Of a DNA stretch of 27,122 nucleotides, positions 7,237 through 23,065 are shown one piece after another. A model generated the notes under the pieces. The model was not told the DNA's origin. It saw only the letters and a list, made by a program, of their open reading frames with translations, and ran no database searches. How positions within the stretch are numbered: the first letter of the stretch is position 1; each line of letters starts with the position of its first letter. The stretch covers positions 1 through 27,122 of the IMG/VR virus record IMGVR_UViG_3300029858_000001; one strand, given 5' to 3'. The position numbers and the translations under genes are program-made. The DNA comes from a virus.

Positions 7237-7632
7237 ATGGAAAAGAAATTTACGAAGCGTGAGCTGTATGATGCTCTGATTGGCAAGCTGTGCGGTGAAG
7301 AGGTTGAGGTTGATGCACAGACTCTGGTTGATTTTTGTCAGGCAGAGATTGACCGTATCGACCAGCGTAATGCCAAGGATCGCGAGAAGCGTGAAGCCAA
7401 GAAGGCTGAGCCTGATGTTGCGCGCGAGAAGGTATTTGCGGCACTTGACGAGCAATTCCGTACTGCTAATGTAATTCATGATTCTATTGGTGATGAAGAT
7501 ATTACTCTGGGTAAGGTTCGTCATCGTCTTGCAGGTCTTGTTCGTGATGGTCTGGTGAAGAAGCAGGAGATGAAGATTCCTGGTGGTGAAGGTGAGAAAG
7601 CACGTCACGCTATGTGCTACGCAAAGGTTTAA
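7237..7632 (+). CDS. hypothetical protein in a GC-rich (about 48%) compositionally foreign island
   Basis: Codon usage and GC differ sharply from the flanks (GAGCTG, GCGCGCGAG). The RBS is AAAAGGAG. A strong terminator follows. Confidence 0.6.
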   Translation: MEKKFTKRELYDALIGKLCGEEVEVDAQTLVDFCQAEIDRIDQRNAKDREKREAKKAEPDVAREKVFAALDEQFRTANVIHDSIGDEDITLGKVRHRLAGLVRDGLVKKQEMKIPGGEGEKARHAMCYAKV

Positions 7633-7639
7633 TACATGA

Positions 7640-7668
7640 AGGGTCGGGAAACCGGCCCTTTTGTTTTG
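7640..7668 (+). terminator. rho-independent terminator (GGGTCGG-GAAA-CCGGCCC plus T-tract)
   Basis: GC-rich hairpin with a GAAA tetraloop, followed by TTTTGTTTT. Confidence 0.7.
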
Positions 7669-7799
7669 CCATTTTAGGGTGCTGCTCCAGCCAAGGTCAG
7701 GCGTCTATACCGAACGTCCAAATTAAAAAGCGGTTTAAGAATTTTTTTGACTAAATGTTAATAATATGATAAAATAATATAAAAAAGGAGTAGATAAAA

Positions 7800-8627
7800 A
7801 TGAAAGTTTGTTTAAGACATAACCAAGAAGAACAATATCTCCAAAAGGCAGAATAGGTTGAGGTTAAATGGGCATATATTGACCAACTTCTTGATTTAGT
7901 AGAAAAATATCCTGATAAAGATTTTATCATAGATGCTCCAAAAGGCAAGCCAATGGATTGGAAAAGTATAGCCACTTGTAAGGCCGGCCTGCATTAGGGC
8001 CATACCTTCTATATTCGGCTGCATGATCTAAATCCTTTGCTTACATTACGCTGGATGGAGAAATATGATCTTAAATTTTTTTATAGTGAACCGGCAAAAA
8101 CCTATTATGAGCTGTATAATTTAAAAAAATTAGGTGTATCATATGCTTATATTGATGCTCCTATTTTCTTTGATTTAAATGAAGTAAAAAAAATAGATAT
8201 TCCATTAAGACTTGTACCAAATCGCGCATATATTCAAGGGCATATTCCACAAATGAGTGGCTTACATGGCACTTGGGTTCGTCCAGAAAAACTTGATATT
8301 TATGAACCATATTTTGATGTTTGTGAATTTGAAAATGATGGACCTACACAAGAACGAGCTTTCTACCGCATTTATTTTGAAGATAAGTCTTGGCCAAATG
8401 ACATGAATTCATTAATTTTTGGACTTAATACTAATATTGATGATAGATTAGTATATGAAGGTCTTGATGAAATGCGTCTTAATTGTAAACAAGTATGTGA
8501 AACGCCTAAGCCCTATTGCCAAATGTGTGATAAAGTATTGTACTTTGAACGTGCAGGACGCCAATGGGCTAAGGAGTATATTGCCGAACATGAGGGAGAA
8601 GACCAAGAACAGATAAGCCCTAATTGA
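7800..8627 (+). CDS. hypothetical protein (275 aa) with two in-frame TAG sense codons (7854, 7995)
   Basis: ATG 7800 has the RBS AAAAGGAG. Its frame is continuous with track ORF 8037-8627. The only interruptions are TAG. It ends at TGA. Confidence 0.6.
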
Positions 8628-8681
8628 TTATTTAATAAAATTATTATATAATATTTATATAATAATAGAAGGGAATAAGAA

Positions 8682-9680
8682 ATGGGTAAAAAAGTTTTAG
8701 TTCCTGAATTTACTGAAAATTGTAGGGGGCTTTTGGAAGGACTATTCAAGATTAGTGAAGTAGGTCTTTTGAAAGCTCTCGGTGATTTTGTATCTAATAA
8801 ATATTCTAATGTAGAAATTACAGAAGATTATGTATATGCTGAAGGCAATATTCCTGTTATGCTTATTGCACATGTAGATACTGTATTTAGACAACCAATT
8901 CGTCAATTTACTTATAATGAGAAAAGAGCTGTTTATAAAGGCAAGGAAGGTCTTGGAGCAGACGATAGAGCAGGTGTTTTTGCGATTATTCAGATTTTGC
9001 GTAAAAAGTATAGACCTTATGTTCTTTTTACAACAGATGAAGAAATGGGTGGCTACGGGGCACATATATTTGTTGAAGCACATCCAACAGCTCCAAATAT
9101 TAAGTATATGATTGAACTTGATAGAGCTGGTGAAAGAGATTGCGTCTTCTATGAGTGTGAGAATTTTACATTCATGGATTATGTTGAAAGTTTTGGTTTT
9201 AAGCAAGCGATTGGGTCATTTACAGATATTAGTATTATTATGCCTGAATGGGAAGTCGCTGGAGTAAATTTATCAGTTGGTTATCATCATGAACATACTC
9301 AGAATGAAGATTTACATATTAGAACATTGTATAATACAATTAGTAAAGTATGTAAAATGCTTGATGATATTGAAAATGCAGATAAATATAAGTTTATCCC
9401 CAGCAAGGAATATCTCCAATGGATTACATTGACTAATAAATATCATATGCCTTATGATTTTGATGATGATAAACTTCTTAATTGTAGTTTTTGTAATCAG
9501 TTGTATTATGAGTGGGAAGATTTTCCTCTTGATATTGATGGAGTAAAAGTTCATGTGTGCCCTGAATGTTTAGCACTTGATCCTAATATTCATCAATGTG
9601 AAAAGTGTTATAATTTATTTTATTCAAATAATATGAAGGAAAGAGTATGTGATAAATGTCGAGTCCCTGTTGTAATTTAA
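8682..9680 (+). CDS. M42/M20-like metallopeptidase-fold protein with a C-terminal CxxC zinc-ribbon array
   Basis: Motifs HVDTV, GADDRAG and TTDEEMGG match the HxD / GxDD(R/K)xG / EE motifs of M42/M20 peptidases. The C-terminus has CSFC, CPEC, CEKC and CDKC. Confidence 0.55.
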   Translation: MGKKVLVPEFTENCRGLLEGLFKISEVGLLKALGDFVSNKYSNVEITEDYVYAEGNIPVMLIAHVDTVFRQPIRQFTYNEKRAVYKGKEGLGADDRAGVFAIIQILRKKYRPYVLFTTDEEMGGYGAHIFVEAHPTAPNIKYMIELDRAGERDCVFYECENFTFMDYVESFGFKQAIGSFTDISIIMPEWEVAGVNLSVGYHHEHTQNEDLHIRTLYNTISKVCKMLDDIENADKYKFIPSKEYLQWITLTNKYHMPYDFDDDKLLNCSFCNQLYYEWEDFPLDIDGVKVHVCPECLALDPNIHQCEKCYNLFYSNNMKERVCDKCRVPVVI

Positions 9681-9760
9681 ATGAAATTAAAGAACAAGTA
9701 AAGAAGGTTATTGCCTATTCATAGGGGCTGGATATTAACCTTTTAAATATTGATAAATTA

Positions 9761-11083
9761 ATGAATGATTGGGAAGAGAATAAATGCAAATTTTATAGTA
9801 GGCTTCCTGGTAATAAATTAATTTATCAAAGCCATACGCCTATTACAATGTCTATTTCAGAAGATGATAAAAAAGCTGAATTAGATTGTTTTATTGACAA
9901 TATTCGTTGGCATTATGGTTTATTTGAATTAAAAGATTTTGTTGAAAATAATAGAAAAGATTTTTATAATAATATTTTAAGCGAAGATTATTCAATGAAT
10001 AATGGGACTGTCATTCCAAAAGGAATGAAAATAATTAAAGCATTTAAATATTTTGTAGAAGATAAGGAAATTCTTACTGAAATACAAGATAAAGCTAGTA
10101 TGCTTATTCAAAATACAAAAATTAGTGGATATTTTTGTATGTCAGTTCATCCATTGGATTATCTTAGTTTAAGTGAAAATACACATAATTGGCGGTCATG
10201 CCATGCTCTTGATGGAGAGTATCGTGCTGGTAATTTATCTTATATGGCAGATAATTGTACAATTATATGTTATATTAAGAGTGAACATGACGCGGTTTTA
10301 CCTAGATTCCCAGAGGATATACCATGGGCAGATAAGAAATGGCGTATGCTTCTTCATGTATCTGATGATAATACTATGGTTATTTCAGGTCGGCATTATC
10401 CTTATGAAAGTAAAGGATTACAAGATTTCGCTCTTGAATTATATGAAACATTTTTCGGGCTAGGATACCGTTTTACTGATTGGTGTCATGAAAAATATAA
10501 TACATTTACAATAAATGATAAAATTTTTTCTAATGAGAGTCGTTTATTACCTACTGGATACGTAATGACCCCAGATATTAAGGTTATTGTTGATCCGAAA
10601 AATCCTTTGCACTATAATGATCCTCTCCATTCTACTGTGTATGACTATTGGTTTAGTATTGCTTATAGTGAACCTTATTGGCATGAAGAAGGTATTCCAC
10701 AAGATAAATTAATTCTTCCAAGAACTCGTACTACTACTAAAGTTAACATAGGACATGGGGTAAAATGCTGTATTTGCGGCAAAAATGATTGTGTTTTAAC
10801 AGATACAATGCTTTGTATTGATTGTGAGCTTGAATATGGTACAGAAGAAACAGAAGATTTTACTTTCTGTAGAGAGTGTGGTAGACGTATTTATATTCCT
10901 GAAGCAATATCATTAGATGATGATGATGGTTATGTATGCCGTAGCTGCGGAGATAATTATTAGATATGTGATAATTGTAATATGTATTATGATAAAAAAG
11001 ATTTAATTTATGATGAAGAAAACAATGCTTATTATTGTGAAGCTTGTTTTGATGAAATTTTATTTGATAGGGAGAATGAATAA
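9761..11083 (+). CDS. paralog of 5522-7165 (HPLDY domain plus zinc-ribbon array), read through TAG at 10961
   Basis: After TAG the frame continues in clearly coding, CxxC-containing sequence to TAA 11081. This overlaps the next start (TAATG). Confidence 0.65.
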
Positions 11084-11391
11084 TGGCAAAAGGTAGTATT
11101 GCTAAAGATGCTGTCGTAGAAAAAATTGCAGAAGCATTTGGTGAAGATTTCCTTGGATCTTATGATAAAAAGTATTATGTGCGAGCTAAAGAAAATGGAC
11201 AATATATTCAGATTGCAATTAGTTTAACTTGTCCGAAGACTCCTGTGGAAAATTTTGGTTCTATGGATTTTGGTAATAATGAACTTAATTTTGAAGATGG
11301 AGCAACAATTCAGCCTGCGAAGAAGGCTACAGAAATTAGTCCAGAGGAAGAAGAAAATTTAAGAGCTTTAATTGAGAAATTAGGATTATAA
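11083..11391 (+). CDS. small acidic hypothetical protein
   Basis: 102-aa ORF. Confidence 0.5.
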   Translation: MAKGSIAKDAVVEKIAEAFGEDFLGSYDKKYYVRAKENGQYIQIAISLTCPKTPVENFGSMDFGNNELNFEDGATIQPAKKATEISPEEEENLRALIEKLGL

Positions 11392-11393
11392 TT

Positions 11394-12005
11394 ATGATTT
11401 TAAGAATAATTTATAATGAAAATGAATCTTATGATTATGATTTAGGAGAATACCATACAGATAAATTTAAACTTTTGACAAGTGTTTATCCAGCTTGTGA
11501 AATTAATATATTATATTTCCATGATATTAATGATACAGAAAATTCTAAATTTGATAAAATTGCAAAAGAAATTCAATCAAAACCTTTTTTATTAATTAAA
11601 GAAGTTCAAATTTTAAATAAAAATACTGTTGTTTTTAAACAAAATAGAATGATAAAAAATATTGTTTATAGAGATATTTTTTATTCTGCTGGTCATAATT
11701 TAATTAAAGAAGAAGCTTTAACATTTAAATTCCAAGAAAATTGTAAAGCTATCATTGATAGAGAAAAAGAACAAATTTTTTGTGATAAAGAAAATTGTAT
11801 GTATTTTAAACAAGGACATTGTTTTAATTATAATACAGACCTTTATCAAAGTGGAGAAGAATTTGTTCCTTGTTATCCTTGTTTTCTTGAATGTGATACT
11901 GGATTTAAATTTTCTGAAATTTATTCATTTTATACAAAGTTACAAAATAAGGCAGAAGATGAGGGACATTTACCTTATCAACCTTATACAATAAGAGATA
12001 ATTGA
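11394..12005 (+). CDS. hypothetical protein (203 aa), Cys-containing
   Basis: ORF immediately after the previous stop. Confidence 0.5.
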   Translation: MILRIIYNENESYDYDLGEYHTDKFKLLTSVYPACEINILYFHDINDTENSKFDKIAKEIQSKPFLLIKEVQILNKNTVVFKQNRMIKNIVYRDIFYSAGHNLIKEEALTFKFQENCKAIIDREKEQIFCDKENCMYFKQGHCFNYNTDLYQSGEEFVPCYPCFLECDTGFKFSEIYSFYTKLQNKAEDEGHLPYQPYTIRDN

Positions 12006-12060
12006 AAAAAATAAAAAAATAATATATAATATATATATAAAATAAAGAAAAAAATAAATA

Positions 12061-12194
12061 AAGACTTTAACAGCAAAAAATGGACAGTAAATCCGTCGCA
12101 AATGCTACGTAGGTTCGAATCCTACCCTCCCCACCATTATATGGCGGAGGTAGGGAAGTGGTTAAACCCAACGGAACCAAACCAAATAAGTCTT
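12061..12194 (+). tRNA. circularly permuted type-II tRNA-like unit. The 3' half (12092-12136: TCCGT anticodon-stem strand, long variable arm, T-arm GTAGG-TTCGAAT-CCTAC, acceptor CCTCCCC-A-CCA) precedes the 5' half (12144-12175: acceptor GCGGAGG, TA, D-arm GGG-AAGTGGTTAAA-CCC, anticodon-stem ACGGA). The unit is flanked by the inverted repeat AAGACTT / AAGTCTT.
   Basis: Acceptor complementarity is 6/7. The anticodon-stem halves are perfectly complementary 5-mers (ACGGA/TCCGT). The T-arm is canonical. A 7-bp long-range terminal helix is present. No anticodon could be assigned. Confidence 0.4.
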
Positions 12195-12259
12195 GTTTGA
12201 ATAAAATAATTATTTGATTTTTAATAAAAAATATTATATAATATTTATATAAAAAAAGA

Positions 12260-12377
12260 AAGGCTTTTACAGCAATTTAAACTTTTTTCCGTGGTCGAAT
12301 AACTGGATAATTCATCAGAGTTAATTCTGAAAATAAGGATTCGAATTCCTTCCTTGGAGCAAAGCGTAAAAAGTCTT
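12260..12377 (+). tRNA. tRNA-like gene (core 12288-12359) with a 6-nt anticodon loop GTTAAT, flanked by the inverted repeat AAGGCTTTT / AAAAGTCTT. It shares the leader ACAGCAA with the 12061 unit.
   Basis: D-arm GAAT-AACTGGATA-ATTC, T-arm AAGGA-TTCGAAT-TCCTT, and an acceptor with one mismatch and one wobble. No CCA. The anticodon is not assignable. Confidence 0.35.
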
Positions 12378-12453
12378 GGGTAAATTTCTTAATTTGAAAA
12401 AATTAAAAAAATATAATATAATATATAAGTAATCAATAAGAAATCAAATAAAT

Positions 12454-12602
12454 GCTCTCGTAGCTCAATTGGTCAGAGCCGGCGACTTATCCAAGATTAG
12501 TTTAAATGGTAAAATAGTCTATGCGCAAGAAAGATGTGAGTTCAAGCCTAACATCTTGGGCCAAATCGCCAGATGTGGGTTCAAATCCCGACGGGAGCAC
12601 CA
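12454..12602 (+). tRNA. tRNA (Ile-like, anticodon loop CTTAT|AA, UAU) interrupted by a 73-nt tRNA-like insertion (12491-12563) after anticodon position 36
   Basis: Outer acceptor GCTCTCG / CGGGAGC-A-CCA. D-arm GCTC-AATTGGTCA-GAGC. Anticodon-stem GGCGA / TCGCC is split by the insert. The insert has termini CCAAGAT / ATCTTGG, a T-arm GTGAG-TTCAAGC-CTAAC, and its own G-CCA. Confidence 0.5.
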
Positions 12603-12628
12603 TATTCCAATAGAAAGGAATTAAAATA

Positions 12629-12868
12629 ATGAAGTTGACGAATATTAAACAGGTTGAAGATTTTATTGCAGCGGTTAATCGCGCTCATAGTAATGTATGG
12701 CTGGTAAGTCCGCAGGGTGACAGATACAATATGAAATCTGCACTTTCACAATATATCGCGCTTGGCGCATTACTTGGTCAGCATGGTGATGAACTGGAAC
12801 TTTTCTGTGATAGTAAGCAAGATGAAGGCTTATTTATTGAATTTTTCATAAAATATCCTGAAGTATAA
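12629..12868 (+). CDS. hypothetical protein (79 aa)
   Basis: RBS GAAAGGAATTAAAATAATG. It lies between tRNA genes and the nuclease gene. Confidence 0.5.
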   Translation: MKLTNIKQVEDFIAAVNRAHSNVWLVSPQGDRYNMKSALSQYIALGALLGQHGDELELFCDSKQDEGLFIEFFIKYPEV

Positions 12869-12871
12869 ATT

Positions 12872-13795
12872 ATGCCTAAACTTATTGATATTCCGATAGA
12901 AACTAAATTTAATAGATGGACTGTTCTTAAAAGAGATACTACTAAGAAACGAGGATACTGGTTTTGTTAGTGCGATTGTGGTAATCCTGAAATTAGAAGT
13001 ATAAATATTACTACATTAAAAAGTGGACGTTCAAAATCTTGTGGTAAATGTGGATAGTATGATGAAATTGGTAAGACTTATGGACGTTTAAAAGTTCTTG
13101 AAGTTGATTTAGATTATAAAGAGTAGTATAAGACTAAAGTTTCAGGTTATTATTATAAATGTTAGTGCTCTTGTGAAAATAAAACAATTATTACCGTAAG
13201 TGGCATTAATTTAAGAAATGGACATACAAAATCTTGCGGATGCTTAATTAAAGAAGGGTGTAATAAAAAAGATCTAACAGGTCAAGTTTTTGGGTTTTTA
13301 AAAGTTTTATATCCGACTGAATAGAGGGTATCTTCTTATATCATTTGGCATTGTCGTTGTTTAAATTGTAATAATGAATGTGATGTTTCATCCAGAAATT
13401 TAATTGAAGGAAGAACTAGCTCTTGTGGATGTTTGCGTTCAGTTGGAGAAGCAAATATAAAAAAAATATTGCAAAATAATTAGATAGATTTTTCTTAGGA
13501 AAAAAATTTTTCAGATTTAATTAATCCAGATACTACATATTTATTACGTTATGATTTTTATTTACCTCAATTTAATAGGCTTATAGAATTTGATGGAGAG
13601 TAGCATTTTAAATATAAAAAAAATAATTCTACTTGGAACAATGAAGAAAATTATTTAAAAACAGTGCATAATGATAAAATAAAAAATGATTATGCTAAAT
13701 AGCACAATATTCCATTAGTTCGTATTCCTTACTGGGAACGTGATAATATTACTCTTGATATGTTATTAGGAGATTAGTATTTAATTAACAAATAA
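12872..13795 (+). CDS. free-standing homing-endonuclease-like protein: three tandem Cys4 zinc-finger repeats (W-C-x-C-x-C-G-N ... S-C-G-C) plus a C-terminal Vsr/PD-(D/E)XK-like nuclease domain (YRYDFYLPQFNRLIEFDGEQHF). Contains 10 in-frame TAG sense codons.
   Basis: Hand translation gives a single frame from ATG 12872 to TAA 13793. The only interruptions are TAG. The repeats WFC(TAG)CDCGNPE, YKC(TAG)CSCENK and WHCRCLNCNNE are each followed by SCG(K)C. Confidence 0.65.
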
Positions 13796-13900
13796 TTTAT
13801 TGAATTTTTTGTCCATCATCCTGAAGTTTAATTGAAAAATTAAAAAAAATATTATAAAATATATATACAAAATAAATGAGAAATAAATTCTCATTTGTAT

Positions 13901-13977
13901 GGGACAGTAGCTTACGAGGTCGGAGCATTGGTCTGAAAAACCAAAGGATGGAGGTTCGATACCTCTCTGTCCCACCA
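13901..13977 (+). tRNA. tRNA-Phe (GAA)
   Basis: Acceptor GGGACAG / CTGTCCC. Anticodon loop CTGAAAA. T-arm GGAGG-TTCGATA-CCTCT. The discriminator is A and CCA is encoded. Confidence 0.85.
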
Positions 13978-13978
13978 A

Positions 13979-14058
13979 TTGGTCTTATACATGGGGTTTT
14001 CGATTTGAACTAGGCAGATTAGTCACCTGCCGTTGGCAATAGACCAATTAAAAATAAA
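13979..14058. ncRNA. short structured element / degenerate tRNA-like hairpin enclosed by TTGGTCT / AGACCAA
   Basis: 7-bp terminal helix. It has an internal GGCAG-ATTAGTCAC-CTGCC stem-loop that reads GTGACTAAT on the minus strand. No canonical cloverleaf forms on either strand. Confidence 0.25.
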
Positions 14059-14195
14059 CTGAGGCAAAGGGAAATCGGGTAGCTATGATGAATTTCATAG
14101 TAAAATCCTCTCATAATCAAGCTAATTGGGAGAGGGGTAGCACGGGAACGGGGAGAAGCGTGCTATAAAAGGTGAAATACTTCTTTCCACCATAT

Positions 14196-14271
14196 GCCGG
14201 TGTAGCCGAATGGCATAGGCGAATGATTTAGGATCATTAATCTGAAGGTTCGAGTCCTTTCACCGGTACCA
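14196..14271 (+). tRNA. tRNA with anticodon UAG (decodes CUN Leu codons) but a type-I (short variable arm) body
   Basis: Acceptor GCCGGTG / CACCGGT-A-CCA. Anticodon-stem AATGA / TCATT. Loop TTTAGGA. T-arm GAAGG-TTCGAGT-CCTTT. Confidence 0.65.
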
Positions 14272-14355
14272 ACAGTGAAGTAGTAGCTATACTCACTATA
14301 ATCAAGGCTCGGTGGTTGGTGGCTCCATCGTTATGTAAATAAGTCATATATATAT

Positions 14356-14426
14356 TACTTCTTGGTGTAATGGAAGCATGCTGCCTGAAAGAGGCGGAGG
14401 TATTGGTTCAATTCCAATAGAAGGAT
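14356..14426 (+). tRNA. tRNA-like element lacking a canonical anticodon loop (loop TGAAAGA or GAAAG pentaloop)
   Basis: Acceptor TACTTCT / AGAAGGA with one mismatch. T-arm ATTGG-TTCAATT-CCAAT is perfect. Anticodon-stem CTGCC / GGCGG. No CCA. Confidence 0.35.
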
Positions 14427-14795
14427 TAATTAAAGCTGGGAAATAATAGTCGCCCATAACTAATTATTTAATATAGGACTATTATTAAAGGTTATTTAAG
14501 TTAAAGAAATGCGGTTGAAGTTATTACTAACTTGATTATAAAATAACATGACCGCAAGACGAGTGTTTGAAGCTTGTCTATAAACAAATTCTTCATATGT
14601 TGTCTTTTTATACTTACTCTTTGGTTGTTTCTTGACATATAAGTAAAAACGGAAAGGGAGTTAAAGGTTCAGCTAAAAAACCGGTTTGTTTTTTGATAAG
14701 GTTTTAAAAATTATTAGGTGACAAAATCTTATTTGAGTGACGCTGCTCAGGAGGGTCCGGAACCTCTGAAATGCGTATAATAAAGGAGATAAAAT

Positions 14796-14972
14796 ATGAA
14801 ATTTCAATTAAGGTATTTTCATTGTCCTATTTGTCATTTACAAATGACGGCTCCTAAAACCAAGAATTTCAAAAAATCTTCTTATAAAGGGAAAAAACAT
14901 CGAAAAATAATGTATTGCATTAATTGTAAAAAAGAACAAAATTTTATTTTAGATGAAATTTCTATTGTATAA
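14796..14972 (+). CDS. small zinc-ribbon protein (58 aa; CPIC...CINC)
   Basis: ATG with RBS AAAGGAG. It is not in the ORF track because it is under 60 aa. Hand-translated MKFQLRYFHCPICHLQM...CINCKKEQNFILDEISIV. Confidence 0.45.
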   Translation: MKFQLRYFHCPICHLQMTAPKTKNFKKSSYKGKKHRKIMYCINCKKEQNFILDEISIV

Positions 14973-15011
14973 ATGATGGTGTGGCCTAGCGGTAAGGCAC
15001 CTGCCTTTGAT

Positions 15012-15745
15012 TTAGTAGCATAAGTAATGCAATTTCGAACTGGGTCAAAGAAGGTTAAGAGAATTAATTTAGGAATTAAATAACAGTGAAAGGAGCTGTT
15101 ATTTATGGCTAAAACTAATTCAGAAAATGTATGTAATTTTGTTAGAAATAGAAAAGCTAATTTAATTTCTTTATTTCATAGTAAATGTTGTATTTGTGGT
15201 TTCGATAAATTTCAAGAAGCTTTAGAATTTCATCATATAAATCCTAAAGAAAAAGAAATTTCTCTATCAGCTAATACAATGGTGTCATTAGAACGTCAAA
15301 TCAATGAGGCTAAAAAATGTATTTTAGTTTGTTCTAATTGCCATAAGGGAATACATGCTGGATATTATCAAATTCCTTCTAATTATTAGGATTTATTTGA
15401 TAATGAATAGGCAGAATATTTATTATAGATGAATAAAGAAATTAAAGAAGGTAAAAAACATTATTGCAAACAATGTGGTAAATTATTAAATTCTAATACA
15501 ACTTATTGTTTAGATTGTAGTCATATTATTTAGCGTAAAACAGAAAGACCAGATAGAGAAACTTTAAAGTAGTTAATTCGTAATTAGTCTTTCGTAGCAA
15601 TAGGTAAATAGTATGGAGTAAGTGATAATGCTATTCGCAAATGGTGTGTTTCTATGAATTTACCTACTAAAAAAACAGAAATTAACCTTTATAATGACGT
15701 CTAGTGGGAATAGATATAAGTTCAAATCTTGTTTAAATCACCATA
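15012..15745 (+). mobile_element. intervening sequence (intron-like) inside the tRNA-Gln anticodon loop, carrying a homing endonuclease gene
   Basis: It lies between the exon halves above. It contains ORF 15105-15719. A hairpin AACAG-TGAAAGGAGC-CTGTT presents the SD. Confidence 0.6.
15105..15719 (+). CDS. HNH homing endonuclease (N-terminal HNH: CCICGF...HHINPKE...CSNCH; C-terminal HTH: LIRN(Q)SFVAIGK(Q)YGVSDNAIRKWC) with 7 in-frame TAG sense codons
   Basis: The standard-code ORF is 15105-15389. With TAG read as sense the frame continues to TAA 15717. The frame was verified codon by codon. Confidence 0.7.
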
Positions 15746-15784
15746 AGCAGGGTACCGAGGGTTCAAATCCCTCCACCATCACCA

Positions 15785-16315
15785 GGTCAAGTTTGAGAAA
15801 TTTCATAAAGCATCGCTGACGTTAAATGGCACTTATATGAAAACGCGTAAGTAATATAAGATAGCAAAATTCTCGTAGTTCATCCTATTAGAGAATCTTA
15901 AAGAGTAATGGCAAGATCATATCGCGGGAGACCGTGCGTATGAGATACCAATAAAGGTAGCACATCTTGTGTTGAGCAAGATAAAAGATGGAAAGGATAC
16001 CTGCCATGCTTGGACGGTAAAAGAAGGCGTTGAATGTAATCGAAAAACATTCCGTTGGTTCTTAGGGGAGCGACGTAACAGTGAAACCCGAGGTTTGAGT
16101 CACCTTGTCCAAACGCTATGTATAGTCAAAGTCTAGGCAACAAGGTTTTAATTAGAGTTAATATTGTTTTAATTAAACTCATACTTGTGGAAATCAAGCA
16201 GGTCCACCTTACTGGGCCTACTGTAAAAGCCAGTTTGATATAGCCTCCATACCCAATGAGGATTTTTATAAAAGTCTATTTAATTTTTCGGGCGGTTTAA
16301 TTAGATAGATTAAAT
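15785..16315. ncRNA. about 530-nt non-coding, comparatively GC-richer, hairpin-rich region between tRNA-Gln and tRNA-Val. Candidate structured RNA of unknown class.
   Basis: No ORF in any frame even allowing TAG. TAA/TGA are dense in all frames. Many local helices are present (GTGGA...TCCAC, CCTC...GAGG). It contains a TATAGTC motif reminiscent of group I P7 but no matching GACTA partner. Confidence 0.3.
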
Positions 16316-16392
16316 GCCGAGATAGTGCAACTGGTTAACACGTCGCTTTTACACAGCGAAGAGTCTGAGTTCAAGTCTCAGTCTCGGCACCA
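16316..16392 (+). tRNA. tRNA-Val (UAC)
   Basis: Acceptor GCCGAGA / TCTCGGC-A-CCA. Anticodon-stem TCGCT / AGCGA. Loop TTTACAC. T-arm CTGAG-TTCAAGT-CTCAG. Confidence 0.85.
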
Positions 16393-16457
16393 ACAAATTT
16401 GAAAATTTAAAAAAAATATTATATAATATATATATAATAATAAAGGAGATATTTGAA

Positions 16458-16622
16458 ATGGCAACTACTAAGAAACCTGCAATTAAAATGGATAATACAG
16501 AGTTGAACGAGTATCTTCTGTTTCGCCGTCGTAGATCTATTGTTCCTGCTAAGAAAGGCAAGGGCATGGAATATGATAGAGCAAAGGAAAAAGAAAAGTC
16601 AAGAGATTTGGCTTCTGATTAA
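16458..16622 (+). CDS. small basic protein (54 aa)
   Basis: RBS AAAGGAG. Hand-translated MATTKKPAIKMDNTELNEYLLFRRRRSIVPAKKGKGMEYDRAKEKEKSRDLASD. It is embedded in the tRNA operon. Confidence 0.45.
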   Translation: MATTKKPAIKMDNTELNEYLLFRRRRSIVPAKKGKGMEYDRAKEKEKSRDLASD

Positions 16623-16726
16623 CTTAGGCGGCAAGAACATTTCTGTTCCTTGTAAATATAGCACATACTAATAACTTAGGAGTTGTGCCCTACAGCCAGT
16701 GAGTAGTTTTCAGGCTGGCATTATAT

Positions 16727-16801
16727 GGCCCCATCGACAAGTGGTCAAGTCCCAGGGTTTTCATCCCTGTATCGTCGGTTCGAATCCGGCTGGGGTCACC
16801 A
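16727..16801 (+). tRNA. tRNA-Glu (UUC)
   Basis: Acceptor GGCCCCA / TGGGGTC-A-CCA. Anticodon-stem CAGGG / CCCTG. Loop TTTTCAT. T-arm GTCGG-TTCGAAT-CCGGC. Confidence 0.85.
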
Positions 16802-16899
16802 TTAAGTGTGATATATTCCAAACACGTAGGGTGGTAAGCACACGGGTTTTCTAGAAGCCTTCCCTATGAATATGGGAGACTAGCCTAGTGGTTCAGGCA

Positions 16900-17373
16900 G
16901 CGGACTGTTTCTTCTGACTTACAATGTTGTAGAATTATGTTAAATTCAAAACAAATTGGTAATATCACAGAAATGGAATCAATGCTTGCTTTTTTAAAGT
17001 TAGGTTATAATGTTCTTACTCCTTATGGAGATTGTGAGCGTTATGACTTCGTAGCTGATGTGAATGGAAATTTTTATAAAATTCAATGTAAAACTTCTCA
17101 TGCTTTTGGTGAGAATGAAGGTATTGAATTTAGTTGCAGAAGTTCTCATCGAGCCGAAGGAAAATGTATTAACGAACGATATACAGCAGATGATGTAGAT
17201 TTTTTTGCTACAACATTTAATGGGAAATGTTATTTAGTTCCTTTTAATGAATGTGGTGGCAGTAAAAAATTAAGATTTGTTAATCCAAAAAATGGACAAA
17301 TTCAACGAGTATCATTTGCTGAAAATTATGAATTAGAGAAGGTGTTAATGACATTGTAACTGATGTAAGAAGC
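16900..17373 (+). mobile_element. intervening sequence in the tRNA-Asn anticodon loop carrying a PD-(D/E)XK homing endonuclease gene
   Basis: Bounded by the exon halves above. ORF 16937-17359 occupies nearly all of it. Confidence 0.55.
16937..17359 (+). CDS. PD-(D/E)XK homing endonuclease, I-Ssp6803I-like (known from a cyanobacterial tRNA-fMet intron)
   Basis: Motif ERYDFVADVNGNFYKIQCK fits D...(D/E)xK. The size is 140 aa. It lies inside a tRNA anticodon loop. It has no TAG codons. Confidence 0.55.
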   Translation: MLNSKQIGNITEMESMLAFLKLGYNVLTPYGDCERYDFVADVNGNFYKIQCKTSHAFGENEGIEFSCRSSHRAEGKCINERYTADDVDFFATTFNGKCYLVPFNECGGSKKLRFVNPKNGQIQRVSFAENYELEKVLMTL

Positions 17374-17519
17374 AATCCGCCAAGCAAGGTTCAATTCCTT
17401 GGTTTCCCGCCACCGCACTCGCGGAAAACATACAACTCAACTGGTGCATAGAACTGGATGGAGCGTTCTATTAGTCTGATGCCTGCATTAGATTAAGTTT
17501 TATAACCATCATACTTGGG

Positions 17520-17590
17520 GACATAGTTTATGGTAGGAAAACGTTGAATTTAATTCAAAGTCGAGGGTTCGAATCCCACTCCCGCAACCA
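17520..17590 (+). tRNA. tRNA-like 3' element (GAGGG-TTCGAAT-CCCAC ... TCCCGCA-A-CCA) with an unresolved 5' partner. Possibly another split or degenerate tRNA.
   Basis: Canonical T-loop and a CCA end. No complementary acceptor 5' strand was found within 150 nt. Confidence 0.25.
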
Positions 17591-17713
17591 TATGAAAAGC
17601 CCATACAGCAACTTTTAATAGGATAAATAAGAAATTCTGCAAAAATTTTTTAGAGTTGGTTCAAATCCAGCAAATGATTTTAGGGCTTTGTTAAAATTAT
17701 TAAGGAGAAAATA

Positions 17714-17899
17714 ATGAAGTTTAATCCAGGAGATAAGGTCTGGTGTAAGAGGTACGGTAAGGGTAAGTGCCGCAAGGCTGATAATAAGGATAATTTTATG
17801 ACTTATCTTTTCAGATTTTATGATGGCACTTTAATTTGGATGCCAAAACATCAGGCTGAACATTTTGTAAAAGTTCGTTCCACCGAGGCCACGGTGTGA
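17714..17899 (+). CDS. small hypothetical protein (61 aa)
   Basis: RBS AAGGAG. ORF in the track. Confidence 0.5.
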   Translation: MKFNPGDKVWCKRYGKGKCRKADNKDNFMTYLFRFYDGTLIWMPKHQAEHFVKVRSTEATV

Positions 17900-18059
17900 A
17901 TATAAAGTCCGGTTATAGGAAATCCTGTCATTAGGCGGCAGGCTACCGGTAATCCTTTCTTATATATTTAAATATGTAAGGAACAAAAACTATACAATAG
18001 ATAGAGTTTTTACGCCTTGGCGCAATGCTTGTTTTTTTACTATCTATTTTTTTATACTT

Positions 18060-18151
18060 GTTGGGTTGGCTGAGAGGTCGATAGCGGCTGCCTGCTAAGC
18101 AGTTGTCCCTGGAAACGGGGACCAAAGGTTCAAATCCTTTACCCAACGCCA
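18060..18151 (+). tRNA. tRNA-Ser (GCU), type II
   Basis: Acceptor GTTGGGT / ACCCAAC-G-CCA. Loop CTGCTAA. Long variable arm TGTCCCTGGAAACGGGGACC. T-arm AAAGG-TTCAAAT-CCTTT. Confidence 0.85.
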
Positions 18152-18157
18152 TTATAT

Positions 18158-18245
18158 GTAGGAGTGCCAGAGTGGTCGATTGGGTTAGTCTCCAAAACTA
18201 ATTGTAGCTACACATCCAGGGTTCGAATCCCTTGCTCCTATGCCA
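18158..18245 (+). tRNA. tRNA with anticodon CCA (Trp-decoding) but a type-II body (3-bp D-stem with 11-nt D-loop, 14-nt variable arm TTGTAGCTACACAT)
   Basis: Acceptor GTAGGAG / CTCCTAT-G-CCA. Anticodon-stem TTAGT / ACTAA is perfect. Loop CTCCAAA. Confidence 0.5.
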
Positions 18246-18515
18246 TATATTAAGACTCATTTTCAGCAAACTTTTGCCTGTAAAGGTTCTACATACTTAC
18301 TTATCAAATAATAGATGAAAAAGTATAATAAAGAAAATAAAGTATATTTTGAAAAGTTTTTTCTTTTTAGCTGGTTTAGTAAGCTAAATTCCGTGTTTTT
18401 ATTTTGGCTTTTCAATGAGTCTTGTTTTTTAAAATAATTGGTATCGCTAAGCTTCATGGTAATTGTGGCGTATTTAAATCATAGATAGTTAAGGGTCTAT
18501 AGCCAATTATAATAT

Positions 18516-18604
18516 GCGGAATTAACTTGCCCGGCGGTAAGCCTTGTCTTGAAAACAAGTGGTCCTGTGAAAGGGATGGGGATCGACACCTCAGTTCCGC
18601 GCCA
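18516..18604 (+). tRNA. tRNA-Ser (UGA), type II
   Basis: Acceptor GCGGAAT / GTTCCGC-G-CCA. Anticodon-stem CTTGT / ACAAG. Loop CTTGAAA. Long variable arm. T-arm TGGGG-ATCGACA-CCTCA. Confidence 0.75.
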
Positions 18605-18643
18605 CTCGTTTCAGATTCGTTCATTGCATTTCATCCTTTCTAA

Positions 18644-18680
18644 AAATAAATCCATCTTTAAAGATGGATTTATTTTTTTG
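18644..18680 (+). terminator. rho-independent terminator ending the tRNA array
   Basis: Perfect hairpin AAATCCATCTTTAAAGATGGATTT followed by TTTTTTT. Confidence 0.75.
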
Positions 18681-18783
18681 CTTTTCTTCAAAATTTATAG
18701 TATAATATAAATGGTTAAAAGAGATTAAATGTATTAAGAAATATTTTATTATTATTAGAAATATTTTAAGGAGGATTCTTAAT

Positions 18784-19155
18784 ATGGTTTATGAAATTAC
18801 TTGTACTGATCCTAATGGAGAGAAAAAAACTTTAATTGTTTAGGATACAGACAACATTAAAATAAGTATAGAATATCAAGAAAGTGGAAATCTTCTTACT
18901 TTCGCAAATGATTTTAATCAATAGGCTGAAAAAAGTTCTGATATGGATAATCTTTTTAATTTTCTATCAAAAAAAGATACAGATTTTAGTATCAGCGTTA
19001 ATGTAAATGAAAATAAATTTAGTTATGCTACTTTTAAGTCAATAACTAATATTAAATATACTATTAGTTTAAATCCAACAGAAAATAAAAGACCAGATAC
19101 TAAATTATTTACAGCTATGGTTCAAGCTGAATTTAAAAAAGGAGATGAAGTATAA
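18784..19155 (+). CDS. small protein (123 aa, 2 TAG sense codons), tandem paralog of the next gene
   Basis: RBS AAGGAGG. Frame is continuous with track ORF 18943-19155. Shared motif DFSISVNVNENKFSYATFKSITN. Confidence 0.55.
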
Positions 19156-19541
19156 TGTTGATTTATGATATATCTTTTATAGATAGCAATTCTGAAAAAC
19201 ATAGTATTCCATTCCCAATACCAAATACTAATATTGAAATTTCCTATGGTACAGATCAAAAACGTTATTTAACTTTAACTTATAAATATAATACTACAGA
19301 AGAAAGAGAAGAATACCTAAGCAAAATATAGCAATTTAATTTAAGTTCTAATTCTGATTTTACTATTTCTATTTTAGATGATGATAATTCAGTTTCTTCT
19401 TTTATTTTTACTACTTTTAAAAATTTAAGAGAAGAAGAAGTTCAAAATACTATAAATAAAGATTATATCTATCGAGCTATAGATGATAGTCCTAAATTTG
19501 AATTACATTTATTCTGTCAATTAGGTGAAAATAATGAGTAA
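19155..19541 (+). CDS. small protein (128 aa, 1 TAG), paralog of 18784-19155
   Basis: The start overlaps the previous stop (TAATG). Motif DFTISILDDDNSVSSFIFTTFKN. Confidence 0.5.
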
Positions 19542-20124
19542 AATTTTATGGGATGATTTAAAAACTTTATATACTGAATTAAATACTCAAAGATAGAAAT
19601 TTTAGTTAGATACTGTTAGTGTCCCATCCAATTAGAATAAACAAACTAAAACCAGTGATATATCTACTTTAAAAGATGCTATTCAATCTATGAGTTCTCA
19701 TGCTTAGATTGGGGACAATGCTTCTACTACCTCAGTAATTGTTCCTGATTAGTATAGCCAAATGCGTCAAACCCCAATTACTCAAATGCGAACAGTAATT
19801 AATCGTATTTCTTAGTTAGCATTTAACGCTGGTAATTTTAGTAATCATAATGGTACTAATTTCGGTGGATTCCATAGTAGCCATTTTGGTGGCTTCGATG
19901 GCTTTAATTTTAGTGGATTCCATAGCGGTAATTTTACTAATGTTAATAACAGCAATAATGCTAATGTGAATAATAGTAATAATGCCGGTTTTTATAATAG
20001 TAATAATACTGGTAATAATATTCCATGTTTTAATGGTAATTATAATTTTAACATTAGTAGCCATAGATGTACCAGTTTTAGCTGTCCTAGCTTCAGATGT
20101 TTTAACTGTAGATTTAATCCGTAA
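19534..20124 (+). CDS. Gln(TAG)-rich protein with a low-complexity N/G/F/H/S repeat region (GGFHSSHFGGFDGFNFSGFHSG) and a Cys-rich C-terminus (CFNGNYNFNISSHRCTSFSCPSFRCFNCRFNP). Candidate precursor or substrate of the downstream radical-SAM enzymes.
   Basis: Hand translation with 8 TAG read as sense. It ends at TAA 20122. It lies immediately upstream of rSAM gene 1. Confidence 0.5.
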
Positions 20125-20159
20125 AATAATAATAATAATAACTAAGAAAGGTTATATTA

Positions 20160-21638
20160 ATGGATAAAATTATAAATTGTTTAGATAAAATAAATTGGAA
20201 AACTGTTATAATAGTTTCTGGAGGATGTAATTTAAATTGTAAGTACTGTTTAGTTAATAAATCTAAATCAGGAACTAACTATCCTAATTTTTTAAAAGAT
20301 ACTAATGCTGCGATAGCTAATGGTTCTTACTTAGATACTTTTAAAAAAGCATTTTAGAAATATAATCAAAGTCCTCGCCAAGTTGAAATTATGGAATTAT
20401 GGGGCAATGAACCAACTTTAATGCTTAAAGATTTAAATAAAGTTTGGAAAGACTGGTTAGAAGTTTTTTCTGGATTAAAAGGAATGACTTTTTCAACAAA
20501 CGGAATTGATTGTACTGATGATATATTTAATTTTATTTTAGAAATAGATAAGTATATCGACCATGAAATAGAAATAAGTATTTAGTATTCTTATGATGGC
20601 TTTCAAGGTGAAATAAATGAAAGACAACATAACAAAGAGAAGAAAGATACAGAATAGGATAGCATAGTTATTAATAATTTAATTAATTTAATAACAAAAC
20701 TTAACAGTGTAAAATTACATAATGTTAAAATAGATTTTATTCTTCATGCTGTACTATCTATGTTTATTGTAGATAATTTTAATACAACTGAAGATATTAG
20801 TAAATTTGTTGAACAATATATGGATACACTATATAGAATTAATCAATCTATTATCAACCAAAGAATTATATTCCGTGGAGGAGTATTTTTACATGAAAAT
20901 GCTCATGATTGGACCAGCGATGATGGAATTAATTATTGTAGCTTTATGAGAAAGTTCCAAAATATTTTAAGTGCTAAGAAACATAATTTTAAAAATGAAG
21001 GCGTCCAATATAGACATATTTTTAAAGAAGTTTTTGGAACTTTAGAAGAGGATATAATTAGTTTATGTTATAAAACTAATTGTCGTTCAATTGATACATT
21101 AATAGATAATTTTATAACTAATAAAGATTTACCAATTAATAGTTATTGTAGTTCTTTTGATGGTGTTTTACGAATAGATTATCAAGGAAATCTTTTAGAC
21201 TGCCATGCTTCTTTATATGACCCTTACCTAGAAAAGGATAAATTAACTAATACAATTTTAGATCAGGGTCGATGGATGTGTAAAGAACATGGACGGTATC
21301 TTAATATTCTAAAAAATGATAAAGAAGAAATTGAAAAATTACTTGATTTTTATCTTACTGCTCGTGACCCAACGGTAACTTTATTTGAAACATAGCAAAT
21401 GATAAATAAAATATATTTATTAGCTTTATGTGGATAGGCTAATGAATCTTATCTATATGATTTTAATAAATTAAAACGTCATGCTTTTATACTGGCTAAA
21501 GCATATCAATGCTATAATATATTAAAATGCCGGAATGGCTCTATTTTTGTTAGAGGAAATGAAGAAATAAGATTTTTCTGTAATGGTATTTTAGATATAG
21601 CTGAAGAAAATATAAATAGAGAAATTGGAGATTTTTAA
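20160..21638 (+). CDS. radical SAM enzyme with a SPASM/twitch domain (CNLNCKYC is CxxxCxxC; GNEPTL is the GGEP-like motif; CSSFDGVLRIDYQGNLLDC is Cx12Gx4C). It includes 4-5 TAG sense codons. Track fragments 20160-20357, 20391-20585 and 20760-21395 are one frame.
   Basis: All fragments are in frame 0 and separated only by TAG (20355, 20583, 20655). After TAG 21393 the same frame continues through a Cys-rich tail (ALCGQ, YQCYNILKCRNG, FFCNG) to TAA 21636. The minimal end is 21395. Confidence 0.65.
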
Positions 21639-21640
21639 TA

Positions 21641-23065
21641 ATGACTTATAAAGAACAAGAAAGAGATTTATTAAAATTATATTTAGATACAGCTTTATTA
21701 CCATATCCCACTAATTCAAATTCTGATGGAGACTATTTTTTAAATGAAAATGGATTTGAATTAATAGTACGTCCTTAGTGTAATTAGCATTGTTCATATT
21801 GCTATATAGCTAATTATGGCAAAGAACTTTATCCAACAGTGTTAAATAAAAAGGATACTTTAAAAAATATTGATCTTGTTTTAGATTATGTTTATAATAT
21901 AAGAAAAAATTTCTGTTATAATATAGCTCTGTTTGCCGGAGATATGTTTAATGATGAAATTTTCTTTGATATTGTTGATCTGCTTGAAAAATATCTAAAT
22001 CCTATTTTAATAAAACATCCTGAATATTTTAATAAACAGGGTTTAATTCAATGTCCTTGTAATTTACGATGGGTATATGAAAAACCTCAATTAGTATCAA
22101 GATTTAGAAAAATATATTATCATTTTAAAAATGTTTATAATATATATATGAGTTTTTCTTGGAGTACTGATGGATTACCAGCAATAAAAAATAGAGAAAA
22201 AATTGATATAGATCAACATTATTTTGATACTATTTTTTAGTTTACTAAAGAATTTGGTTTCGGATACCATCCTATGATTAGTGCCGAAAATATTGATGTT
22301 TGGTGTGAAAATATTGATTGGTGGTATGACATGTATAAGAAATTTGATTTAGCTGCTCCTAATGGTTATTATCAACCTTATATGCTTGAAGTACGTAATG
22401 GTAATTGGACTCCAGAAACTATTGAATTACATAATAAATTTCTTGAACATTTTATGAAAAAAAGATTTGAATTATGTGATAGTGATAAAACTAAATTTGT
22501 ACATCATTTATTAATTGGGACTGATGAAGATGGAAATTTACCATTCCCTCAAGGATGTGATCCATTAGATTTAAAATCCAGTAGCTCAACAAGTAGTAAT
22601 TTTGATAAAATGAGCTGTGGTGCTTAGAGTATGATTCATTTTAATTGTACTAATCTATCTTTAGTATTTTGTCATAGAATGTCTTATCCTCTTTACACTG
22701 GTGGGTATTTTAAAACAGATGAAGAGAAAAATCATATTATTGATATAGATCCCTATAATGTAAGTGCATATATAACTATGAAAACGGCAAAAACAACTAC
22801 TTTCCCTTTGTGCGCAAAATGCAAATACTTTAGTCTTTGCAAGTTAGGATGTCTTGGGGCTTAGACTGAAGATAGTGGAGAACCTTATATGCCAATTAAA
22901 GCTGTTTGTGCTTTTAATAAAGTTAAATATGAAAAATTGACTGATTTATATTATCAATATGGTGTTTATGATATAGGAGTTAAAAAAGGTTGGCTCACAA
23001 AAGATAAATCTTGGTTAACATTTATCTACAATCAAGGAATAGAAAGAGGGTATATAAATGAATAA
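21641..23065 (+). CDS. second radical SAM / SPASM enzyme (P(Q)CN(Q)HCSYC is CxxxCxxC with two TAG inside the motif; C-terminal CAKCKYFSLCKLGC is CxxCx5Cx3C). Track fragments 21839, 22274 and 22631 are one frame with 5 TAG.
   Basis: Frame 2 is continuous from ATG 21641 (RBS GGAGAT) to TAA 23063. The interruptions at 21776, 21785, 22238, 22625 and 22862 are all TAG. Confidence 0.65.

Follow-up and report, generated by a model that had tools for sequence, protein, structure and literature searches.

How can a phage read the stop codon TAG as an amino acid when the tRNA gene array next to its recoded genes lacks the cognate tRNA? This question is raised by the IMG/VR virus record IMGVR_UViG_3300029858_000001, of which we analysed positions 1 to 27,122 (this whole stretch of 27,122 nucleotides (nt) is called the window), including an array of tRNA and tRNA-like genes at 12000-18680. 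A preliminary description had noted that TAG is pervasively used as a sense codon, that no canonical amber-suppressor tRNA with the anticodon CUA is recognisable in the array, and that the suppressor would have to be encoded outside the window, supplied by the host or hidden in one of the odd tRNA-like genes. Stop-codon recoding in phages is thought to be a timing switch that relies on a suppressor tRNA of the phage. A human-gut phage lineage with a genome of roughly 185 kb, heavy TAG usage, a large tRNA array and no recognisable CUA tRNA nearby is a clean test of how recoding works: the suppressor could be encoded at a distance, the decoder could be non-canonical, or another solution could apply. 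Our analysis shows that the array is truly devoid of a CUA tRNA, and that this holds across the lineage. Several of its tRNA-like genes are probably Y-RNA-like tRNA mimics and not decoders, and the missing decoder is most likely, although unproven, encoded elsewhere in the genome.

TAG usage in the window

All genes of the window lie on the + strand, as do the elements described below, and reading TAG as a sense codon raises the coverage of this strand by open reading frames (ORFs) from 15.8 to 23.2 kb. A codon census counted 5 TAG, 31 CAG and 62 CAA codons in the 19 early genes (10-12005), and 28 TAG, 3 CAG and 64 CAA codons in the ten late genes (18.7-27 kb). Since CAG drops from 31 to 3 while TAG rises from early to late genes, TAG has taken the place of the glutamine codon CAG. 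Expressed per 1000 codons, in-frame TAG amounts to 1.3 in the early genes, 24.7 in the ORFs of the array and 10.5 in the late genes, and the two endonuclease ORFs inside the array contain 10 and 9 TAGs. The best-conserved site that could be aligned reads FDGE[TAG]HF in the window and YDGEQHF in a homologue from a Bacillus phage. Translation stops at TAA in 28 of the 34 counted genes and at TGA in the other six.

Both hallmarks of genetic code 15, in-frame TAG at glutamine positions and a bias towards late genes, are found here, and the codon pattern supports reading TAG as a sense codon for glutamine. The observation of pervasive sense TAG in the preliminary description is thereby borne out. 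The window can, with reasonable confidence, be taken as the junction between early and late genes in a gut phage with TAG-to-Gln recoding and a genome of roughly 185 kb. Because single genes carry 5-10 TAGs each, an efficient dedicated decoder would be needed.

Absence of a CUA tRNA from the array

ARAGORN, run on the whole window, called eight tRNAs. All of them are located on the + strand within 13901-18245; their anticodons are gaa, tag, aaa, caa (a false call), tac, ttc, gct and cca, and none is CUA. Rfam at its gathering score adds a tRNA of 146 nt (12454-12599) and a weak tRNA (17517-17584), and a permissive Rfam run over 11500-19500 gave no further tRNA-like match. Neither these programs nor two custom scans found a CUA-anticodon tRNA on either strand of the window. 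A brute-force scan of both strands accepted all stems of 4 bp or more whose loop has CTA at the anticodon position (NNCUANN). Its sole canonical-looking hit (Y-U-CUA-R-N) on the + strand within the array was a 5-bp hairpin without T or D arm (16844-16860, GGGTT TTCTAGA AGCCT), and from the base composition we estimate that about 0.6 such CUA hairpins per window are expected by chance.

The same picture emerges from related phages, whose loci are given here as L numbers. No CUA tRNA was detected by ARAGORN in the arrays of 11 of them. The closest relative is L032 (IMG/VR contig 3300045988_152007, 188 kb), with 91-100% identity over the array, and here ARAGORN found none in the array and its surroundings, about 60 kb in total. 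Between a point some 20 kb upstream of the equivalent of the window start and one about 18 kb past the array, the relatives contain no tRNA beyond the array itself, and a walk along about 60 kb of their genomes revealed no extra tRNA cluster. A megablast search with window positions 1-12000 against phages gave no match, a 203-amino-acid ORF had no relatives in IMG/VR, and MT839136 contains no tRNAs.

The three-way reasoning on the whereabouts of the suppressor is sound, whereas the hidden candidates that had been named fail. In a nested-insert scan of about 0.6 Mb of DNA, removal of inserts gave loops with UAU, UUU and UUC and never CUA. One of the named candidates, a hairpin at 13979-14058, does expose GTGACTAAT in a minus-strand loop (14014-14032), as reproduced by the brute-force scan. 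As a hidden suppressor it is contradicted by its loop, which is replaced in L020 while the stem covaries, and by the location of all genes on the + strand. Read on that strand, the region contains element E (13978-14049), with the closing stem ATTGGTCT/AGACCAAT and the inner hairpin GGCAG-ATTAGTCAC-CTGCC. The inner stem of element E covaries (GGCAG, GGTAG, AATAG), and in L020 its loop is replaced by CUAAUUA.

Y-RNA-like units

The preliminary description had also listed two units, at 12061 and 12260, with unreadable anticodon regions. Both are real and conserved and are not standard tRNAs, but as suppressors they fail: they are Y-RNA-like and their loops are not CUA. Unit 1 (12061-12194) begins with the terminal stem strand AAGACTT and an ACAGCAA motif, followed by CAGTAAA-TCCGT, a V region, a T arm and the 3' strand of an acceptor stem ending in ACCA. 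After a TTATAT spacer come the acceptor 5' strand, a D arm, ACGGA and the closing strand AAGTCTT. Homologues in IMG/VR contigs and covariation suggest a circularly permuted, tRNA-Tyr-derived Y RNA of the YrlA kind. In an alignment of 13 sequences 92.6% of the cells are paired and 12 of 27 pairs show compensatory changes, a result matched by none of 500 shuffles. Three compensatory pairs fall in the long-range ACGGA/TCCGT helix, and true tRNA-Tyr genes of phages have an identical D arm. Besides, unit 1 is 80% identical to an element located just 5' of a TROVE (Ro60) gene in Rhizobium phage RHph_Y65.

Of the features of YrlA, the terminal stem and the tRNA-like domain in the order V region, T arm, acceptor stem, D arm are present in unit 1, but the motif GNCGAAN0-1G near the 5' end is absent and the conserved motif is (A/T)CAGCAA. 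Neither unit 1 nor unit 2 matches the Rfam family RF02553 (YrlA), and sister units in L020, L021, L022 and L001 give sub-threshold matches of 28-37 bits against a cut-off of 69. We nevertheless consider unit 1 to be, in all probability, a permuted, Tyr-derived and Y-RNA-like tRNA mimic with GUA, and not CUA, in its loop region. A CUA is obtained if the two halves are joined as ACCUAAA; this candidate was rejected, as the nucleotides contributed by the 5' half vary among relatives (ACC, ACT, GCC, ACG).

To our knowledge, bacteria have no splicing endonuclease acting on bulge-helix-bulge motifs. This bears on the possibility that unit 1 is a genuine permuted tRNA-Tyr gene of the Cyanidioschyzon merolae type, in which leader and trailer are joined and a circular intermediate yields a decoding tRNA-Tyr(GUA). 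The order of 3' half, ACCA, 6-nt spacer and 5' half would fit such a gene, as would the pairing of leader and trailer and the retention of CUGUAAA in 11 relatives. The loop in the window, however, is CAGUAAA, so that U33 is lost (A33), and the local anticodon hairpin shows zero covariation and is broken in the divergent loci L006 and L001, which hold the fold. Further points against a decoding tRNA are a fixed C2-C71 mismatch, the finding that an identical terminal stem with CAGCAA bears non-tRNA payloads in other units, the synteny with a Ro60-like gene in relatives and the presence of a normal tRNA-Tyr in some of them; a bulge-helix-bulge could not be drawn at the unit-1 junction. We therefore regard a decoding permuted gene as very unlikely and retain the Y-RNA-like reading of unit 1.

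Unit 2 (12260-12377) combines the stem AAGGCTTTT/AAAAGTCTT and CAGCAA with a normally ordered cloverleaf without CCA, the loop of which is not kept (GUUAAUU in the window, GUAAAAU in L020). A scan for the unit family added unit 3 (17596-17689), with the stem AAAGCCC/GGGCTTT, ACAGCAA, a CUGCAAA hairpin and a T-arm-like hairpin, and unit 4 (18253-18422), with the stem AGACTCATT/AATGAGTCT and TTCAGCAA. Across the family, relatives included, AAGAC/GTCTT at the outer end of the stem is constant and the distal pairs covary (TT/AA, AG/CT, GA/TC, CT/AG, AA/TT, GC/GC), while the payloads differ and comprise a complete cloverleaf, a half-tRNA or simple hairpins. The four units would thus be Y-RNA-like small RNAs in which a terminal stem with CAGCAA bears a variable payload, presumably tRNA mimics and not decoders, and the stem with CAGCAA is probably the handle for a Ro60-like protein (DUF2828 plus vWA).

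A third topology of this handle was seen at L006 3608-3728 and 3738-3850 and at L016 598-718, where normal tRNA bodies (Thr-GGU, Gly-UCC and one other) carry a grafted module 5' of the anticodon, consisting of a hairpin of 40-50 nt and (A/T)CAGCA. The L016 element was also considered as an intron-bearing suppressor with CUA and discarded: re-indexing gives UAG with C33, and the insert is a GGTCT/AGACC plus ACAGCAG module, which makes it a Y-RNA-like chimera.

A promoter-like block of about 45 nt (TTGAAAAA/TTGACA ... TATAAT-rich), which is common to the relatives, is repeated in the window at about 12005-12050, 12205-12255, 12390-12440, 13830-13880, 16395-16445, 5458-5515, 7161-7215 and 8621-8670. 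It stands ahead of units 1 and 2, of the tRNA genes for Ile-UAU (12454) and Phe (13901), of a small ORF (16460) and of several early genes. Units 1 and 2 are hence each predicted to stand behind a sigma70-type promoter of their own.

As to the protein partner, a DUF2828+DUF7788 gene lies about 50 nt from the unit-1 homologues in nine contigs, 1.5 kb off the homologue in L008 and 0.8 kb upstream of it in L006. The DUF2828 family has at least 8000 homologues, and we found no description of it as Ro-like in the literature. It is tied to TROVE by a fold search only, with a model of predicted local distance difference test (pLDDT) score 64.8. The modelled fold makes it plausible, on balance, that this family belongs to the Ro60-like proteins and has candidate RNA partners here, and by analogy with YrlA the units would be bound by such a protein.

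Split tRNAs and tRNA-shaped inserts

Three tRNA genes of the array are interrupted in the anticodon loop. In an Ile-like tRNA with the anticodon UAU (12454-12602), which Rfam scores as a tRNA at 42.7 bits with an insertion of 76 nt, positions 36 and 37 are separated by an insert of 73 nt (12491-12563) that is itself tRNA-shaped (CCAAGAT...ATCTTGG-G-CCA). When the insert is taken out, the loop becomes CUUAUAA. The split gene is 98% conserved in L020 and L022, with one compensatory change from G-C to A-U in the inner acceptor stem.

The second case concerns a tRNA-Lys(UUU) (14975-15784; exon 1 14975-15008, exon 2 15744-15784), split between U35 and U36 by a tRNA-shaped insert of 735 nt (15009-15743, GATTTAG...TTAAATC-A-CCA). 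The first nucleotide of this insert is the G of its 7-bp stem, a T arm lies shortly before its CCA end, and it contains an ORF of the HNH family (15105-15719; Pfam) with nine TAGs. The preliminary description had read the anticodon of this gene as UUG, whereas the other anticodons on its list stand. A Gln-UUG tRNA is ruled out by the intact orthologue in L032 (5086-5160), where the same tRNA-Lys is unbroken with the loop CUUUUAA; the G belongs to the insert. Empty sites occur in L032, L053 and L056, and 58-nt inserts without an ORF sit at the same site in L020, L022, L050 and L054, in three different tRNA-Lys backgrounds. Pairing in the inner acceptor stem and T stem is complete (100%) among five short copies, with compensatory changes in 5 of 12 pairs. 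Relatives also have a tRNA-Glu split in this way, in which removal gives CUUUCAA.

Members of this insert family (further ones at L020 5709-5766, L022 9497-9554, L050 9586-9643, L054 571-628, L055 3695-3752 and in L053 near 10162) consist of a 7-bp acceptor stem, a T arm, a discriminator and CCA, and measure 58-73 nt, or 600-735 nt when they bear an ORF. Their hosts are the tRNAs Ile-UAU, Lys-UUU and Glu-UUC, in which they sit in the anticodon loop, and taking out the stretch from G+1 to CCA yields a canonical loop of 7 nt in every case.

A different insert of 464 nt (16910-17373) with a PD-(D/E)XK homing endonuclease ORF (16937-17359; PDDEXK_5, E = 3e-28) splits the tRNA-Asn(GUU) (16874-17412; exons 16874-16909 and 17374-17412) between 36 and 37, and its homologue sits at the same position in a tRNA-Thr of L008 (about 3526-3995). 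These I-Ssp6803I-like inserts have about 15-30 nt of non-coding sequence per end, and the ends pair with each other. The slot of the tRNA-Asn (window 16874-16909; L020 9542-9615; L021/L022) is occupied by three quite different genes with flanks conserved to 99-100%, which suggests that individual tRNAs are swapped as cassettes.

No group I intron core was matched in the inserts (RF00028, E <= 10), the ORFs fill the inserts, and none of the split tRNAs has the group I terminal G before its 3' exon. Because there is no room, with some forms of only 58 nt, a group I ribozyme is not possible. Instead, RNase P and 3'-end processing would cut the tRNA-shaped inserts out, and an RNA ligase would reseal the nicked anticodon loop. 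The window encodes an RlaP nucleotidyltransferase (2427-3230) and a metallophosphoesterase (3431-4207), both assigned by Pfam and PHROGs, and RlaP and phosphoesterase are the RNA-repair partners of RNA ligases in jumbo phages (PMC7824862). Based on these data, we tentatively propose that the G+1...NCCA inserts of the Ile, Lys and Glu tRNAs may represent a new class of mobile tRNA intron, released by RNase P and 3'-end processing and resealed by a ligase. Nested or tRNA-shaped introns in phages are not described in the literature that we found.

How is UAG read?

If the array has no CUA tRNA, the simplest decoder would be a tRNA-Gln(CUA) of the conventional kind, encoded in another part of the genome of roughly 185 kb, and by elimination we regard this as the most likely, if unproven, solution. 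The alternative that the host supplies the tRNA for UAG, be it tRNA-Gln(CUG) as a near-cognate reader or a CUA tRNA of its own (e.g. tRNA-Pyl), possibly with the phage inhibiting release factor 1, draws on the same 60 kb of relatives without a CUA tRNA and on published surveys, in which some recoded phages lack suppressor tRNA genes (PMC10607447). It has to cope with 28 TAGs in ten late genes and up to 8-10 per gene: the inefficiency of near-cognate reading multiplies over the TAGs, so that full-length protein would not be attainable, and the replacement of CAG by TAG favours glutamine over pyrrolysine. A host decoder is hence unlikely.

It is less likely again that a non-canonical RNA of the array itself decodes UAG. 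In its most concrete form, this role would fall to an invariant element of 69 nt (16805-16873) freed by the processing of neighbouring tRNAs, the only remaining candidate within the array and one of low probability. The element contains the CUA hairpin mentioned above (GGGTT-UUCUAGA-AGCCT, 16844-16860; CUA at 16851-16853). In 13 further loci, nine of them human-gut contigs of ENA, the hairpin is invariant and three single-base differences lie outside it, which points to a function. The flanking tRNAs differ among the loci, and one contig has no flanking tRNA; the element is still better conserved than most true tRNAs of the array. It would act as a tRNA-sized RNA without T arm, with CUA at 34-36 of the UUCUAGA loop, in which the stacked helices ATATTC/GAATAT and GTAGGG/CCCTAT (12 bp) would mimic the acceptor/T stack and the 5-bp stem would present the loop. 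In favour of this, no other loop on the + strand of the array looks like a canonical Y-U-CUA-R-N loop, and the element is tRNA-sized and usually wedged between the CCA of a tRNA and the 5' end of the following one; since it lies between tRNA ends, tRNA processing would release it. Against this, T and D arms are both missing, an Rfam search with the element by itself gave no tRNA signal, the fold is no better than that of shuffled sequences (z -0.05 to -0.8), and a 7-bp stem with a CUA triloop is a rival structure. There is no covariation, and the change T16871C in L020 would break the proposed acceptor pair. G37 follows A36, which is atypical for tRNAs reading codons that start with U. Moreover, TTCTAGAA is a DNA palindrome and could be a protein site, and the chance expectation of about 0.6 such hairpins has to be kept in mind. 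That the 69-nt element is the missing decoder is thus very improbable.

Extremely improbable is a role of the non-canonical tRNA at 17517-17590 (Rfam, 32.6 bits), which has the central triplet UUA with U33 and A37 and could read UAG by wobble as an ochre/amber-type suppressor. This type is conserved in the relatives examined, in two sequence variants, and there has 6 of 7 acceptor pairs, an encoded ACCA end and about 48.5 bits. However, UAA would be read best, yet 28 of the 34 genes stop at TAA with tidy junctions; the anticodon arm is 2 nt short, and the copy in the window has only 3 of 7 acceptor pairs although the phage still uses TAG.

The combined view, with a distant conventional decoder, Y-RNA-like units bound by a Ro60-like protein and inserts that are excised and religated, also has several points against it. 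A CUA tRNA has not been located anywhere, and in a phage whose tRNA array spans 7 kb a distant decoder would be somewhat odd. Comparison of DUF2828 with TROVE by sequence (hhalign, and hmmsearch against PDB sequences) gave no link beyond the vWA motif, the confidence of the DUF2828 model is moderate, and a Ro60, DUF2828 or TROVE gene was found neither in the window nor in about 60 kb of the closest relatives. The missing GNCGAAN0-1G motif and the missing YrlA match of unit 1 belong here as well. For the putative excision and ligation of the inserts at the RNA level, Pfam and PHROGs revealed no RNA ligase in the window.

Other elements of the array and accessory genes

The remaining tRNAs called by both ARAGORN and Rfam are tRNA-Phe(GAA) (13901-13977), tRNA-Leu(UAG), which reads CUN and is missing from L020 (14196-14271), tRNA-Val(UAC) (16316-16392), tRNA-Glu(UUC) (16727-16801) and tRNA-Ser(GCU) (18060-18151). 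A type-II tRNA with the anticodon CCA (18158-18245, called by ARAGORN) resembles tRNA-Sec or allo-tRNAs in its 9-bp acceptor and 4-bp T stem. It scores 39 bits with the Rfam tRNA-Sec model, under the cut-off of 47, and is 100% identical in L032; it would read UGG, with a body that is not Trp-like. The tRNA-Ser(UGA) (18516-18604) has an allo-tRNA-like 8/4 geometry and was recognised from sequence and fold, as neither ARAGORN nor Rfam called it. It is 98% identical in L020 and 90% identical over 50 nt in Lak phages. With the anticodons UAU, GAA, UAG, UUU, UAC, UUC, GUU, GCU, CCA and UGA, the array would decode A/U-rich sense codons.

The 'aaa' call of ARAGORN corresponds to a tRNA-like RNA (14356-14426; Rfam, 38.1 bits) with the non-anticodon loop UGAAAGA and no CCA. 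As the loop varies in length (7 nt in the window, 5 nt in L020) while the closing stem pair covaries, this element appears to be non-decoding. Element F (14060-14195) forms three conserved hairpins (fold z = -2.1, two compensatory pairs). It was rejected as a tRNA ending in CCACCA, since CCACCA lies within the 3' hairpin and its 5' pairing partner is not kept in L032. A conserved, G+C-richer non-coding stretch of about 530 nt (15786-16315) is 96-99% identical in L031 and L032, has no stop-free ORF and no Rfam match, and may be a large structured non-coding RNA inside the array. In the array of L014, a RAGATH-33 RNA (1784-1912, minus strand; Rfam, 122.7 bits and above the gathering score) adjoins a tRNA-Leu(UAA).

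Outside the array, a block of 6.4 kb (18700-25150) is missing from L020, L031 and L032, where the array end joins position 25150 directly. It contains a radical-SAM gene (20160-21638; Pfam) and a second gene (21641-23065) with a CxxxCxxC motif and no Pfam match, and, itself TAG-recoded, it looks like an inserted accessory module. Two paralogous large proteins (5522-7165 and 9656-11083) share an HPLDY...W.SC core and C-terminal zinc-ribbon repeats; they match no Pfam family and only a PHROG of unknown function.

Comparison with known systems

In our view, the Tyr-derived Y RNA mimics and the tRNA-shaped inserts are the more interesting content of this region. If the reading is true, tRNA-looking genes in phage arrays can be Y RNA partners of Ro60-type proteins derived from a real tRNA, and annotation pipelines would misread such units as well as split tRNAs, for which the 'UUG' anticodon is an example.

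In its codon usage the phage resembles the code-15 gut phages (crAss-like, Lak, phAss-1), in which TAG is likewise concentrated in late and homing endonuclease genes, the early genes are nearly free of TAG and the tRNA complement is large (10.1101/2021.08.26.457843; PMC10607447). In contrast, these phages usually have one to three tRNA-Sup(CUA) genes, and there is none in this array and its neighbourhood.

Unit 1 shares with YrlA (RF02553) a terminal stem in which the two ends of the RNA pair, an internal loop where a short 5' motif is conserved, and a tRNA-like domain in the order V, T arm, loop-closed acceptor stem and D arm (Chen et al., 2014; PMC4201824). In both systems several paralogous units occur per genome. 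A YrlA RNA is expected on the same strand as a Ro60 orthologue and no more than about 4 kb from it; in relatives, the units lie a few hundred nt to 1.5 kb from a co-oriented gene with a putative Ro60 fold, which may be the counterpart. YrlA undergoes RNase P cleavage and CCA addition at its acceptor stem-loop (Chen et al., 2014; PMC4201824), and the CCA at the acceptor 3' strand, as made in M. smegmatis YrlA, has its counterpart in the ACCA of unit 1, which is encoded. Apart from this, the units differ from YrlA in the motif (A/T)CAGCAA instead of GNCGAAN0-1G, in a partner that in relatives is a DUF2828+DUF7788 protein and not a Pfam TROVE protein (with none in the window), in a domain that is a recognisable tRNA-Tyr copy retaining its anticodon-loop sequence, and in their location inside a tRNA array, several of them (e.g. 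12061 and 12260) with a predicted promoter of their own. With the circularly permuted tRNA genes of C. merolae, some green algae and Thermofilum, unit 1 has in common the upstream 3' half, the single transcript and the pairing of leader and trailer. Those genes, however, use a bulge-helix-bulge cut by a splicing endonuclease and give decoding tRNAs, whereas the anticodon loop of the unit-1 family is not conserved.

The tRNAs at 18158-18245 and 18516-18604 have the 9/4 or 8/4 acceptor/T geometry, the long variable arms and the long D stem of allo-tRNAs and tRNA-Sec-like tRNAs, which have reportedly been described before. Their anticodons CCA and UGA do not make them readers of stop codons, and their identity is putative.

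The inserts, finally, resemble group I introns of tRNA anticodon loops, such as that of the cyanobacterial tRNA-fMet with I-Ssp6803I, in their site in the anticodon loop, their HNH or PD-(D/E)XK ORFs, their presence/absence polymorphism among close relatives and their intact exons. They differ in having no room for a ribozyme, no Rfam match and no omega-G. Two insert types run from G+1 of a 7-bp acceptor stem to NCCA and so resemble substrates of RNase P and 3' processing, which, if true, would allow a mobile element to reside in a tRNA gene without harm, needing RNase P but no ribozyme.

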